Positions 24,241-33,200 of a stretch of 64,000 nucleotides of DNA are shown piece after piece. Source of the stretch: Trueperaceae bacterium (GTDB taxonomy: Bacteria > Deinococcota > Deinococci > Deinococcales > Trueperaceae); NCBI GenBank assembly GCA_034520945.1, contig JAXHNB010000006.1, positions 864,001 through 928,000 on the forward strand, written 5' to 3'. The position numbers were made by a program. Within the stretch, counting starts at the first letter, position 1, and each line of letters starts with the position of its first letter.

Positions 24241-27200
24241 TCAGGGGGCGTCGCGTGGTCCCTCCGCCGCGTGCGGAGCCAGCGCGTCCGACCACGCGAC
24301 CGGAAGCCGGACCGCGCGTCCACGCCGGTCTGTCGGCACGTGCTCGCTGAGGGCGGACGCGACGGGCGTGTCGTCCTCGAGGCGGATGTCGTATTCGAAG
24401 CGGGCGTAGCGGCTTCGCAGGCGCGTCATGGCACAGTCGATCCGCACCAGATCGTCGAAGTGCGCGGCGTGGCGGTAGCGGACGTCGATCCGCGACACCG
24501 CCATCGACACGCCCGACGCCTCGAGGGCCGCGTACGACAGGCCCAACGTGCGCATCCACTCCACCCGCGCGACCTCCATCCACACCACGTAGGCGCCGTG
24601 GTGGGCCACGCCCATCTGGTCGGTCTCGGCGAAGCGCACGCGCAGGGTCATGTCTCAGAGGCTAGCAGCCGTTCCTCGCGCAAGCGCTGGATGACGGCCC
24701 TGTCGACGCGGGACATGGGCAGGTCTTGCAGGTCGCGCGGGTGGACCCAGGCGCACCGGTCGGACCGGTCGCCGCCGTCGCGCTGCGCGGGGTCGGGCGG
24801 TGCGTGCACCACGACGGGAACCAGCTCCAGCCGGAAGTGGCTGTACACATGGCGTACCGTCGCCAGGCGCCGCCCGTCCGGTTCGAGGTCCTGCTGTGGG
24901 GGGCCCCACAGGCCCCCGAGCAGCCCGTCGGCGGAACGCCGGACCAGGTACAGGTGCCCGCCGTCGAGGTGCAGCCGCGCGAAGCGGCGGCGCGTCGGCA
25001 CGGCGGCGCGTGCGCGAGGGGTTGGATACGCCTCGGGCGTGCCGCTGGCGTGTCCCCGGCAGATGGCCGCCAGGGGGCAACGCCCGCAGGCCGGTGTGCT
25101 CGGGCCGCACACGGTCGCGCCCAGCTCGATCAGCGCCTCCGCCCCTCGGCCGGAACGCGTCCGGGGGAGGAGGGTCGCCAGCTCGCGCCGAAGATCGGCG
25201 TCCCGAGGGGCTTCCTGGGCCAGCAGGCGGGCGCCGACGCGGCGCACGTTGCCGTCGACGGCGACCGTCGGCGCGTCGAACGCCATCGCGCAGACGGCGG
25301 CGGCGGTGTAGGGACCGACGCCAGGCAAGGCCCGCCATCCCTCTTCGGATCTTGGAAACACGCCGCCGTGATCGAAGACGATGCGGCGGGCGGCGCGATG
25401 CAGCATGCGGGCGCGCCGGTAGTAGCCGAGGCCCTCCCAGTACCGGAGCACCTCGGCTTCCTCCGCGGCGGCCAGGGACGTCACGTCGGGGAAGCGTGCC
25501 ATCCAGCTCGGGTAGTACGCCGCGGCGGTGGCGGCCCGCGTCTGTTGCAGCATGATTTCGGCGACCCAGGCCGCGTAGGGGCGCCGGTCCCGGCGCCATG
25601 GCAGCGGGCGCGCGTTCGCCTCGAACCAGGCGATCAGCTCGGAGCCCGCCTGCGCGATGGCGTGGGGCGGTGGGGGGGCACGGTCCGGCACGGCCCCGAC
25701 GATATCGCGCCCCCCGTCGCGGACGGTACGGTTTCGACTCGAAAGCGTTGTGCGTGGTCGGCCGGCATCCCCGCTGGGTGCATGCGCAGGGCGGGGGTGG
25801 TTCGTGCGGCCGACGCCGCCCGACCACCGACGAATCGAATCCCTTATATGTGCGTCAGGGACGGGGTTGACGCCGCTCACGCCGAAGGCGTACCATCGCG
25901 TTCGTGCCATTGGGGGCACCGAAGGCCGCAGCGCGGCCGTCCCCCTTCGCAGCAGCAATCTTACGAATCGAAATGCAGCGTGCCGGGCGCGGTACGCGGC
26001 GTGCCGGCCCCGGACCGGCGGAAAGGACGAAGCATGATGCAACAACTCGCCACCCCCTACGGAACGTTGGACATCGATCCCCGCTCGCTCGAACTCGGCG
26101 AACTGGTCGTCAGCGACGAAGGGGTCGAGCTCGAAGTGGTGTCGCTGGACCCGCTGCACTTCGAGGTCGCCCCCGACGAGGTCGAGGACTGGGGCGAGTG
26201 ACGGCCGGCGGCGACGGGGGTCCGCGCACCGTCGCCGTGGTGTACGACCGCCTCCGGCCGGAGGAACGCCTCCTGTTCGATGCGCTGGACGGCGCGGGCC
26301 TCTCCGTGTCGCGCCTGTACGCCAACGATCTGGCCTGGCGCAGCGACGCGGCGATGGCCCGCGCCGACGTGGTGCTGCTTCGCACGCTGTCGCAGGCGCG
26401 CACCTTGGCGATCGCCCGCATGTTCGAGGCGGAGGGCCTGCCGGTGGTGAACGCCGCGAAGGTGGTCGAGACCTGCGGCGACAAGGCCGCCACCAGCGCC
26501 GCGCTGAAGGCCGCGGGCGTGCCGCAACCGCGAAGCGGCGTCGCCTTCGGCCGGGAGGCGGTGCTCGCCTTGTGCGACGCGTTCGGGTGGCCCGTGGTGA
26601 TCAAGCCGGTGGTGGGCAGTTGGGGGCGGATGGTGTCGCGGCTGTCCGATGCCGACGCCGTCGATGCGGTGCTGGAGCACAAGCGCGTGTTGGGGGGGCC
26701 GTCGCATCAGGTGTTCTACGTGCAGGAGCACGTCGACAAGCCGGGGCGCGACATCCGGGCCTTCGTGCTCGGCGACCGCGTGGTGGCGGCCATCACGCGC
26801 GAGAGCGATCACTGGATCACCAATACGGCCCGGGGCGCCCAAGCTCGCGGCCGCGAGGTCGACGATGCGCTGGCCCGTGTGGCCCAAGGCGCCGCCCGCG
26901 CGGTCGGTGGGGGCGCGTTGGCCGTCGACCTGGTCGAGTCGTCCCGGGGCCTGCTGGTGGTGGAGGTGAATCACACCATGGAGTTCCGCAATTCGATCGA
27001 GCCGACCGGCGTGGACCTGCCGGCGCGCATCGCGGCGTGGATTCGGGACGAGGTCGCGGCGTGAGTGCCGCAGCGCCGCTTCGGGTCGCGATCGCGGGGG
27101 GATCCGGCTACGCCGGCGGCGAGTTCCTGCGCTTGGCGCTGTTCCACCCCGACCTCGAGGTGACGCAGGTGACCAGCGAGCGGCAGGCCGGGCGGCCCGT

Positions 27201-30200: not shown

Positions 30201-33200
30201 TGACCCGCTTCGTCGCCACGCCCACCCTCTCCGGCGAAGAGCAGGAGGGGGTGGCGTTGCTGGCCTCCGAGCTCGCCGGCGCGTTCGCTGCCCTGTGGGT
30301 CGACGACGCCGGCAACCTCGTCGCCCGGCAGGGGGAGGGCGCGGTCGCCGTCACGTTCCTGGGGCACGTCGACACCGTGCCCGGCCAGATCCCCGTGGAG
30401 GTCGTGGACGGCGTGCTGCACGGCCGGGGTGCGGTGGACGCCAAGGGACCCCTCTGTGCCGCGTTGGCCGCCGCCGCGAAGCTAGGCGATGCGGCCCGCA
30501 GCGCATTGACGGTCCGCGTGGTGGGCGCCGTGGGGGAGGAGGCGCCCGGCAGCGTCGGAGCGCGCCACGCCGCGGCCACGCTGCCGGCGCCCGACCTGCT
30601 GATCGTGTGCGAACCGTCCGGGTGGGACGGGGTGACATTGGGCTACAAGGGCCGGCTCGGCGTCGAGCTGACCTGCGAACGCCCGGGGGCGCACAGCGCC
30701 GGACCGGAGGCCAACGCGAGCGACCGTGTCGTCGAGGCGTATCATCGCATTCGGGCGCGCCTTTCGTCCGAGGAGGACGTGCCCGCCGCGCCGGGCGCGT
30801 TCGACCGCGTGCAGGTGGCGTTGCTCGACATCGTCGGCGGCTCGGACGGGATGCGCGACGCCTGCCGCGCGCGCGTCGGCATTCGCTTGCCACCGGCCCT
30901 CCCGCCCGACGCGGCCTGGGCGCGGATCGAGGCCAGCGAGCGTCCGGGTGGCGTGCGCGTGGAGCGGGGCGAGTCCGTCCCGGCCGTACGCGGGCCTCGG
31001 GACACGCCGTTGGTGAGGGCGTTCCGGCGCGCGATACGCGCGGCCGGCGGTCGCGCGCGCACCTCGGTCAAGACCGGGACCGCCGACATGAACGTGGTGG
31101 CGGACGCGTGGCCCGTGCCCATGGTGGCGTACGGACCCGGCGACGCAGCGTTGGACCACACGCCGCACGAACGCCTGGACCTACGCGAGTTCGACGCGTC
31201 CGTGGGGGTGTTACGTGACGTACTGGACGGCCTGGCCCGCGGCACCCACGGTGGAGGGACCGCGAGCACGGCACGTCGCCGCGACAACGGGCCGTCGCGA
31301 CAAGGCTAGCAACGCGGAGCTAGAGCCCCGAGAGCTCGTAGTTCTTCTGGATGAACGACTCCCACTCGGGGGGGACGTCCTCCTCGGTGTAGATCGCGCT
31401 CACCGGGCAGGCGGGGATGCACGCCCCGCAGTCGATGCACTCCTCGGGGTGAATGTAGAACTGGTCTTCGGCTTCGTAAATGCACTCGACCGGGCACACG
31501 TCGACGCACGACGCGTCCTTTGTGCCGATGCACGGTTCGGTGATGATGTGGGGCATTCAGGAGACCTCCGCAGGCGATCGACCGCCCTAGAGGTTTCATC
31601 ATCTCCCAGCCCTGCGAGACCGTCAAGCGGGCGGCGAACGCGCCCGGCGAGTGTGCGAAGCGTCCCGCGATCCGCAGCGTCGGGACCGTATACTTGGTGG
31701 ACGTGACGGATGACGGCACTCGGATCGCACTCGAGCTGCTCGAGTACAAGATGGACGACCTTCGGCGGCAGCGCCCCGTGCGGGGCGGCGTGGCGTCGGT
31801 GTGGGAACTTCACGCGCGCCTGAGCAGGCGGGTCGACGGCATGGATCCGGACGACAAGCAGCGCTTCCGGTCGTTGAGCCGGGAGTTGGAGGGGCGTCGC
31901 GGGGGGTCTGCACCGCCGGCCATGACGGGAAGCGAACGGTCCTTGGCGTTCGACGATCTGGTGCTCGACGAGAACCCGGTGCGAGGGGTCGGCGGGACGG
32001 CCCGTCAGGCGGAGGACACGCCCCTCGTCGACTTCGGAGAGGACGACGCGCCGCTGCTGGCGGGGCCGGAGCGCGCACCGCCAGCGAGTCCCGAGGACAA
32101 GCGAGAGCAGGAGGCGCTGCAGCGCCTGGCTGCGCGCGTGTTCGGGCGGGAGGTGTCCCGCTTCGCCGACGGGGTCGCGGCCGCATGGCGTGCCGAGCGC
32201 GAACGCGCCACGGCCCGCCTGATGTTCGCGACGCTGCGCAACTTCGAACGGCACCGGCAGTCCCCCGATTTCGCCCGGGACGCCAACCTGCGCCAGTTTC
32301 GCGTCACCGAGCCCATCCCCCAGCGAGGCGATCCGCTTCTCGACCTCACCAACGTGGACAGCCTCAGCGTCGTCGCCCGGGAACTGGTCGAAGCGATCCT
32401 GTACCTGCGCGACGGGAACCCCGCGCCCCAGATCGAGCGGCGGCAGTCGTTCGACTACATGCGCCGCTTGGCGCTCGAAGTGGCCAAGGACCCCTACGCC
32501 GGCAAGCGGTCGCCGGTCGACACGCCCGGTCCTTCGGCGTCCGACCTGCGGACCGCGCTCCGCGATTTGGGTCGGGAACGCCTGCCCGAATGGCAGCGTC
32601 AGGCACGGCGGCAGGAGCTGGAGCGTCGCATTCGCGAACGGCAGGAGCTGGAACGGGAACAGCGCACCATGCTTCGCCGGGACACCATGCGCTTCACCGA
32701 GTTGGCGGAGGCGTTCTTCGTCCGGCTGGCGCGGTTGCTGCCCAGGTCGGTCGGCGGCGACGCCGAGGAGCCTCAGCTGACGGGTGGCGTGCTGTTCGCT
32801 GTCTCCGACGCGCTTCGCCGCAAGGAGATTCCCGCCGACGCCCGCACCCTGACGCTGCGCTTGGCCGGACCTGTGCGCCTGGCGTTCCTGGGCCGGACGT
32901 TGGCGGTGACGGTCGAAGGTCGCGATCGGCACCTGTTCCTGGAGGATCGCGAGGTGCCGTTGGACGGCGACCGCGTCACGTCGATGAACGGCTACGAGCT
33001 CGAGACGTTCGTCGAGGGCGACTACGTGCACGTGCGCGCACGGGACACGGGGGGGTCGTTGGTGGCGCGCGTGGCGGAGGCGGCGACCGCCCTGTTCGTG
33101 TTGACGTCGCCCCAGGCGGAGATGCGGCTGGCGGCGCTGCGGTTGCTGGCGCCGGGCGCCGCGGCGGAACCGGTCGGGGTGGTCGCGGAGGCGGTGCGAC

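Follow-up and report, generated by a model that had tools for sequence, protein, structure and literature searches.

How can a bacterium use a lysine operon that begins at 2-aminoadipate when the genes for making 2-aminoadipate are missing? This question is raised by a genome of the Trueperaceae. In the window (the whole stretch of DNA that was analyzed, 64 kb), six adjoining plus-strand genes at 26034–31309 match LysW, LysX, LysY (ArgC family), LysZ, LysJ (ArgD family), and LysK, with five of the genes overlapping by 4 nt and with catalytic motifs present in the translations. The lysW gene (26034..26201; TIGR01206 score 55.6, cut-off 53.2) encodes a carrier protein of 55 aa that ends in EDWGE and, like most family members, is devoid of zinc-finger cysteines. 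The aminoadipate-LysW ligase gene lysX (26198..27064) is above the TIGR02144 cut-off, and its product, aligned to PDB 3vpd, carries the signature F-I-T-NS. This signature is kept in 37/37 sequences, which marks them as the aminoadipate type; the ArgX and bifunctional signatures (I-Y-V-GF and Y-I-T-NA) were absent from the same set. The reductase gene lysY (27061..28107) matches the ArgC family, and a second, separate argC lies at C5:169939. In many relatives, with and without the homocitrate synthase gene (hcs), a 400-aa gene without a family match sits between lysY and lysZ. The kinase gene lysZ (28104..28973; NF010659 above cut-off; PDB 3wwm) is followed by the aminotransferase gene lysJ (28970..30178; TIGR00707 above cut-off), which probably also serves as argD. 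Six further class III aminotransferase genes of this genome were scanned and all fell short of the argD cut-off, and Thermus LysJ has dual activity (PMC12998189). Only lysK (30200..31309; NF003367 above cut-off) has an irregular start. It follows the lysJ TAG in the same frame without the GTGA or ATGA overlap usual in relatives, and junction comparison places its first start, TTG at 30200, a few residues short. The operon is intact, as the survey's finding held. Homology and the ligase signature identify it as the lower half of the Thermus-type pathway, presumably functional, in which LysX would put 2-aminoadipate on LysW, LysZ, LysY, and LysJ would transform the load, and LysK would free lysine.

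The upper half is another matter. In this genome (97.4% complete, 5.1% contamination, 10 contigs), the only HMGL-like genes are leuA and cimA and the only Iso_dh genes are leuB and icd; no homocitrate synthase (HCS) and no orthologues of LysT, LysU, or homoisocitrate dehydrogenase (HICDH) were found. No match to a LysN-like protein was obtained when a motif and an E. coli YdcR probe, rather than LysN itself, served as queries; LysN is also blank for Truepera in Table 1 of PMC3356886. The diaminopimelate (DAP) route was not found either. DapB, DapD, and DapF are missing, and the three DHDPS-family genes scanned (of four loci) are all under the dapA cut-off. The set searched was DapA, DapB, DapD or DapL, DapF, and LysA, but not Ddh; it yielded only a LysA-like gene just under its cut-off (297.2 vs 297.9), together with an aminotransferase resembling DapL that is under its own (455.6 vs 486). 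The reported absence of HCS, HICDH, and DapB therefore agrees with our searches. Elsewhere in the family, DapB of genera g9, g19, and g24 (21/128 genomes) was rejected as a sign of a DAP route, with a dap cluster in 0/4 loci read. LysT paralogues (36-48%) occur in 17 genomes and appear catabolic in the three loci read, third HCS_D2 proteins in three relatives (G018, G043, and G052) are located in unrelated clusters, and an aldehyde dehydrogenase at C1:386864 is the orthologue of a general Thermus enzyme and was discarded as a pathway part.

Comparison with relatives showed that hcs-lysTU was cleanly deleted from its ancestral place ahead of lysW. In hcs-bearing relatives, hcs-lysT-lysU lies between mutY and lysW. 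Here, mutY (24648..25691, minus strand) is kept as the left flank, and a convergent ferredoxin gene outside the operon (31320..31556, minus strand) as the right. The loss is real and not an assembly gap, because these flanks are conserved without the three genes between them and four single-contig relatives also have no HCS. HCS is above cut-off in 44/128 family genomes, plus one partial, and LysX in 104/128 (tallies count the unpublished G090 as one genome, and no claim depends on it alone). The survey's HCS tally needs correction for family f4, where the profile probably gave false negatives: a divergent HCS that escapes TIGR02146 occupies the slot in 4/4 loci read. Its statement that lysW follows homoaconitase genes in most relatives did not hold, as this applies to at most 45/128 family genomes. 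The gap itself, described as common to many Trueperaceae, was recovered in 45 of the 81 family genomes that are at least 90% complete, and 37 of those 45 retain LysX.

The lys operon retains its promoter and a paired 15-bp putative operator. The sigma-70-type promoter (TTGACG-18-TACCAT; 25867..25896, plus strand) is built like the hcs promoter of hcs-retaining relatives. The upstream putative operator, a palindrome with the consensus CTTWCGAAWCGAAAG, lies at 25731..25745 (PWM score 13.8), 136 nt ahead of the -35 box and at the same position, about -138, in relatives; the downstream one is in the 5' leader at 25960..25974 (score 20.5). This motif occurs ahead of lysW in 20/23 hcs-less loci and ahead of hcs in 8/12, and the two sites in the whole G047 genome are both at the lys promoter. 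Sites scoring at least 20 within 200 nt are found at only 3 of the 2972 genes of this genome. A simple Lrp pattern search yielded no regulator, Rfam gave only a weak M23 match under the gathering score in the lys leader, and a lysine riboswitch was found in 0/128 family genomes.

The best lead for a substitute is the fused aconitase-like gene at C1:290880, which had been listed as a caveat. It lies outside the window and carries, with its PLP partner, the lys operator. The homoaconitase-like Fe-S dehydratase (C1:290880-292670; duplicated at C1:311169) belongs to a family nearer LysTU (34%) than LeuCD (25%), and its best PDB match is homoaconitase 4kp2, with a TIGR01343 score under the homoaconitase cut-off (212.9 vs 385.7). 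DSH, three cysteines, NRN..GR, and GSxR are all retained, and we presume that they have their usual Fe-S and catalytic roles. The protein is free of lysine over its 596 aa, as are 3.7% of 438 proteins of comparable size in this genome; the homologue median is 0.17%. The adjoining SHMT-like PLP enzyme (C1:292690-293910), a candidate aldolase, has YLFQ where SHMT has YAEG and scores under the cut-offs for both the SHMT family (270.7 vs 335) and L-threonine transaldolase (TIGR04506, 240.6 vs 650); a normal glyA is also present. The two families have 15 longest-contig sizes in common, consistent with a side-by-side location. A protein search recovered an orthologous pair with other flanks (57% and 70% identity) at the metagenome locus L323/L324, which is one organism, with a 24.4-bit operator site 45 nt upstream. 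The pair also occurs in the hcs-less genome G052 (98% complete), where a 21.7-bit site precedes it by 42 nt. A shared promoter-like element is followed by the site at a distance of 42-43 nt in all three, and only two pair loci are unbiased, because G052 was found via the operator. The site in the present genome is degenerate (12.9; equalled at 15/2972 genes). The shared putative operator suggests that the pair is co-regulated with the lys operon. The motif also precedes gltB in this genome and asd in G013, which counts against a role of the pair in lysine synthesis. Our preferred reading, rated about as likely as not, is that the pair supplies the lysine pathway of this genome with 2-oxoadipate.

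A route from the pair to the missing building block can be proposed. With glycine, threonine, or serine as donor, the PLP enzyme would join a glycyl unit to 2-oxoglutarate, and the resulting 2-amino-homocitrate would be dehydrated by the homoaconitase-like enzyme. Hydrolysis of the enamine would give oxaloglutarate and ammonia, and decarboxylation would give 2-oxoadipate, so that homoisocitrate dehydrogenase would be unneeded. In favor of the proposal, HICDH is found in 0/10 genomes of genus g1. The net conversion of glycine and 2-oxoglutarate to 2-oxoadipate, ammonia, and CO2 is a tentative suggestion. It is likewise possible, at the same modest strength, that this route replaces homocitrate synthase, homoaconitase, and homoisocitrate dehydrogenase, using neither acetyl-CoA nor an NAD step. 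In a variant, the acceptor would be succinate semialdehyde. To our knowledge, the known transaldolases of the PLP enzyme's fold use aldehyde acceptors and not ketones, which counts against the 2-oxoglutarate chemistry. A GabT-like aminotransferase (C5:411846) might then give 2-aminoadipate. It scores 380 against the aminoadipate transaminase cut-off of 650, and its gene has the same putative operator in relatives and a degenerate site here (3.9). In the beta-hydroxyaspartate shunt, spontaneous imine hydrolysis is reported to be insufficient in vivo, which counts against the analogous step (10.1101/2022.08.08.503134).

Salvage with slow decay is a possible though doubtful alternative. The cell would make no lysine de novo and would take up lysine or peptides. 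The operon would serve only external 2-aminoadipate or 2-oxoadipate, LysJ would be held by arginine synthesis, and the pair would have another role. LysX loss is confined to hcs-less genomes (8/45 vs 0/36 good genomes), and LysX in the hcs-less genomes that keep it is under weakened purifying selection. Orthologues in hcs-less genomes keep 0.87-0.93 of the columns invariant in hcs-bearing genomes (leave-one-out 0.95-0.975), with no deficit in the guaB control. The proteome contains just 1.41% lysine, polar amino-acid ABC transporters are present, and an orphan LysA-like gene serves as a precedent across the phylum (PMC3356886 Table 2). Against decay, dN/dS of lysX, Y, and Z is 0.06-0.34 in nine hcs-less pairs and the promoter and both putative operators are conserved. 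E. coli probes for HglS, GlaH, and pipecolate oxidase (no clear hit) revealed no catabolic source and no aminoadipate transporter was identified, and the operator ahead of the pair is left without explanation. The balance differs in relatives. When hcs-less relatives were read at their operator sites, just 1/10 proved to have the pair. In nine other hcs-less genomes the one-mismatch sites, all but one in G043, were read and do not have the pair beside them, and it is not in 357 kb of G113, part of a 1.9 Mb contig; the hcs-bearing genomes with operator sites fully read were G012 and G013. The pair is thus not a family-wide answer, and lineages that do not have it probably rely mainly on salvage with decay. 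The survey's proposal of an unknown or external source stands for the unknown source, and an external one is likely for lineages in which the pair was not found.

Leakage through promiscuous enzymes is unlikely. LeuA, CimA, or citrate synthase would make some homocitrate, LeuCD or aconitase would isomerize it, and LeuB, Icd, or a retained HICDH would oxidize it, sufficing for a lysine-poor proteome. Demand is low, three more aconitase-family genes exist beyond the fused one, and HICDH is retained in 27/45 good hcs-less genomes. The earlier caveat on LeuA and CimA gained no support, as their pockets are alike with and without hcs and do not have the His and Arg of HCS, whose roles we assume. 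Icd carries the isocitrate-type motif and three side activities would be required here; with a single citrate synthase and patchy PrpD, a citrate-synthase/PrpD front end is unsupported. Production of ornithine via LysW-glutamate is less probable still. Thermus LysX loads glutamate at <10%, with LysZ at ~60% and LysY at 15-20% (PMC12998189), and glutamate would be without a competitor on LysW because aminoadipate is missing. The uniform LysX signature argues against this, as do the acetyl-route genes (argJ-argC-argF, argB, argG, argH, and an N-acetyltransferase-like gene) and ArgC in 123/128 family genomes. That upper-half genes are unassembled or too divergent to detect is very improbable: the 10 contigs have duplicated stretches, hcs-lysTU has moved elsewhere in G056, and f4 HCS evades its profile, but hcs, lysTU, and hicdh occupy separate sites in relatives and are all absent here, 0/10 congeners have any of the three, an f4-type HCS query returned only LeuA and CimA, and HCS_D2 gave two matches.

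In the accessible literature, the aminoadipate route always starts from homocitrate. Our search, which was aimed at the pathway rather than the gene pair and mostly outside subscription journals, found no description of the truncated pathway, and the pair may be undescribed and a new route to the missing building block. If it makes 2-oxoadipate, the synthesis of a standard amino acid would have a new starting point, the SHMT and aconitase folds would each gain a reaction, a C6 dicarboxylate could be reached in few steps, and an orphan gene pair would receive a testable function. Even if this reading is wrong, the repeated hcs-lysTU loss with a selected, regulated lower half corrects pathway calls in the phylum, as do the lysine operator, the divergent HCS, and a possible stand-in for the missing LysN.

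The enzymes of the beta-hydroxyaspartate shunt (BhcC-BhcB-BhcD) have folds other than those of the pair. The proposed logic is alike, with a glycine aldol onto a 2-oxo acid and dehydration to an imino acid, whereas the pair would use a ketone acceptor, a decarboxylation, and an Fe-S dehydratase, and no imine reductase was found (10.1101/2022.08.08.503134). The fused dehydratase resembles homoaconitase and isopropylmalate isomerase (PDB 4kp2, 4nqy; LysTU) in aconitase fold, Fe-S cysteines, and catalytic motifs, and differs in its single chain, the motifs DDWTTP, CFGFG, and TPS.VPG, and its score below the family cut-off. The PLP enzyme shares fold, PLP lysine, and GGH motif with archaeal SHMT (PDB 4bhd) and L-threonine transaldolases (PDB 7k34, fluorothreonine transaldolase); it differs in YLFQ and forms its own clade (59-72% identity, 43% outside). 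Like the ArgW/ArgX ornithine clusters of Sulfolobus, Thermococcus, and haloarchaea, this carrier cluster has no adjoining aminoadipate-supply genes; unlike them, it has a LysX-type ligase, and an acetyl route is present. Aminoadipate genes were also lost within the phylum in Deinococcus proteolyticus, where the whole pathway went and a DAP cluster was gained, whereas here the lower half was kept and no DAP route was found (PMC3356886). The LysW (AmCP) pathway of Thermus thermophilus (PMC12998189; PMC3356886) agrees in LysW, X, Y, Z, J, and K, the aminoadipate signature, and a separate acetyl route to arginine, whereas in the present genome HCS, LysT, LysU, HICDH, and LysN were not found and a paired operator and a candidate two-gene front end are added.

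The six lysine genes reported by the survey, lysW, lysX, lysY, lysZ, lysJ and lysK, are all present in that order (window 26034-31309, family profile matches), with an irregular start for lysK. LysX can be aligned to the Thermus enzyme (PDB 3vpd), and its signature F-I-T-NS, which was invariant in 37 of 37 LysX sequences compared, is assigned to aminoadipate-specific ligases in PMC12998189. The lysK gene lies in frame behind the lysJ TAG, with a TTG at 30200 as its first start and the usual overlap missing; a slip in the assembly may lie behind this, or the start may be a weak one. 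The lysJ-lysK junction (window 30170-30205) contains five consecutive G. An aspartokinase-like gene, judged from sequence alone, was seen at window 43207-44319.

Homocitrate synthase (HCS, encoded by hcs), homoisocitrate dehydrogenase (HICDH) and DapB are indeed absent from the genome. Its two HMGL-like genes are LeuA and CimA, its two Iso_dh genes are LeuB and Icd, and HCS, LysT and LysU (homoaconitase) and HICDH of the relative G121, used as queries, recovered paralogues only. DapB, DapD and DapF were not found, and the DapA-like genes scanned were all below the cut-off. A LysA-like gene is still present, as it is in 9 of 13 genomes in Table 2 of PMC3356886. LysW is not required to make ornithine, since this genome has the acetyl route to arginine and ArgC occurs in 123/128 family genomes. 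The lysine content of the proteome is 1.41%. Promiscuity of LeuA or CimA, which the survey had raised as a caveat, is an unlikely solution, as the pockets of both enzymes do not differ between hcs-bearing and hcs-less genomes.

The gap is common in the Trueperaceae. With the unpublished G090 included in the tallies, HCS exceeds the cut-off in 44 of 128 family genomes, plus one partial, and LysT orthologues (at least 65%) occur in the same 45, LysX in 104 and HICDH in 94. Of the 81 genomes with a completeness of at least 90%, hcs is present in 36 and missing from 45; LysX is found in 36/36 and 37/45 of these, respectively (four misses being deduced from genus tallies rather than named genomes), and HICDH in 34/36 and 27/45. 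G085 and G104-G107 have hcs and lysT and no HICDH orthologue with the query used. Three hcs-less genera carry orphan DapB homologues, in 21 genomes altogether, and the four loci read (L104-L107) showed no dap cluster.

Across the order, the HCS profile was matched in 27/56, 91/99, 8/8 and 30/56 genomes of four families. In the last of these, TIGR02146 misses 26 genomes in genera g48-g50. A 412-aa protein (L239:1087-2325 on the minus strand; L255-L258) with 32% identity to HCS and the HCS His and Arg stands directly before lysT at 4/4 loci read, and it probably accounts for the profile misses. These genera probably correspond to the Meiothermus group; Table 1 of PMC3356886 leaves the HCS cells of that group blank, and this protein would probably fill them. 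It was not found in the genome under study when used as a protein query.

A recurring order, guaB, thioesterase, mutY, hcs-lysT-lysU and lysWXYZJK, was seen in a comparison of 36 hand-chosen lysX loci. In many hcs-less genomes hcs-lysT-lysU is excised and the flanks are kept, and in others the surroundings are rearranged; a quick tree of operon proteins suggests several separate losses. The dN/dS of lysX, lysY and lysZ was 0.06-0.34 in nine hcs-less pairs. Compared with hcs-bearing genomes constraint is relaxed, guaB showing no such deficit, in a comparison of related genomes that are not independent. Some features of relatives are missing here: a conserved 400-aa gene that 13 genera carry between lysY and lysZ (L026:5664-6905, minus strand, and 15 other loci), with no Pfam or NCBIfam match, and a SagB/nitroreductase-like gene that many relatives have directly before their lys promoter (L031:9308-10021, minus strand, and 15 other loci). 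The LysW of genera g13, g14 and g15 (L034, L035, L036, L054) keeps zinc-finger cysteines that are missing in other family members seen.

A sigma-70-type promoter precedes lysW, with a copy of the 15-bp palindrome CTTWCGAAWCGAAAG on either side. The palindrome stands before lysW in 20/23 hcs-less loci and before hcs in 8/12, at about -138 and at +73 to +95 counted from the -35 box, a spacing that suggests repression by looping. In 30 genomes its pattern gave 2 to 18 sites per genome and the reversed control 0 to 8, with individual matches listed for 13 of the 30. Sulfolobus LysM likewise binds a 15-bp palindrome, according to PMC3597687, and by analogy a LysM-like regulator is a lead only. An operator-like site also stands before the gltB promoter here (C5:771855, score 18.7), and the motif precedes asd as well in G013; the regulon may therefore extend beyond lysine. 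No gltB site of at least 15 bits was found in the leuA-gltB loci read of relatives.

The operator also occurs in 7/8 promoters read of a GabT-like aminotransferase, in hcs-bearing and hcs-less genomes alike (C5:411846-413159, where the site is degenerate; L350, L354, L358, L362, L368, L375 and L386 in relatives), although six of those with the site were found through it. This enzyme is a candidate stand-in for the missing LysN. A precedent is PP_4108 (10.1101/450254), an aminoadipate transaminase for which GABA and 5-aminovalerate are side substrates.

The fused aconitase-like gene that the survey flagged as a possible refutation is real, and it has a PLP partner and an upstream operator, degenerate in this genome. 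The pair (C1:290880-293910) comprises an SHMT-like PLP enzyme without the SHMT glutamate (C1:292690-293910) and a fused Fe-S dehydratase (C1:290880-292670), which is nearest to homoaconitase, retains the catalytic motifs and contains zero lysine residues. The operator lies 45 nt upstream of the orthologous pair in one metagenome organism (L323/L324; 24.4 bits) and 42 nt upstream in the hcs-less G052 (21.7 bits); here, a site of 12.9 bits stands at the matching position. Sites of at least 20 bits precede 3 of 2972 genes in this genome, and sites of at least 12.9 bits precede 15. Both families are tight (approximately 55 dehydratase and 48 PLP-enzyme clusters), with names mostly from Trueperaceae and one Woesearchaeota record. 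The pair adjoins tRNA genes in both relatives (L379:1027-1101; L323:9844-9920) and the flanks differ, hinting at mobile acquisition. Two regions (C1:275600-315000; C8:51800-62300) hold nearly identical tandem duplications, about 20 kb and 5 kb long, and in one of them mrpA is frameshifted. These duplications may have arisen in assembly, and the contamination figure of the genome may be due to them.

Operator-guided reading, which would miss sites as weak as the one here, recovered the pair in 1/10 hcs-less relatives, and it was not in the 357 kb of G113 read; for hcs-bearing genomes, the check covered the operator sites of G012 and G013 only. A LysW pathway variant with a new front end is plausible and testable, and salvage and decay are likely elsewhere in the family.

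The conserved arginine motifs point to neighbouring carboxylates on the substrate. In the proposed front end, glycine and 2-oxoglutarate would form 2-amino-homocitrate, citrate-mode dehydration would convert it to an enamine, and hydrolysis of the enamine would give oxaloglutarate, followed by CO2 loss. Genus g1 has lost HICDH, which fits such a route. The literature searched, with searches not worded for the gene pair, yielded no description of the truncated lysine pathway, and homocitrate is unmentioned in the accessible part of GapMind 2026. The proposed route resembles the beta-hydroxyaspartate shunt, in which, however, spontaneous imine hydrolysis proved insufficient, a point against the hydrolysis step proposed here.
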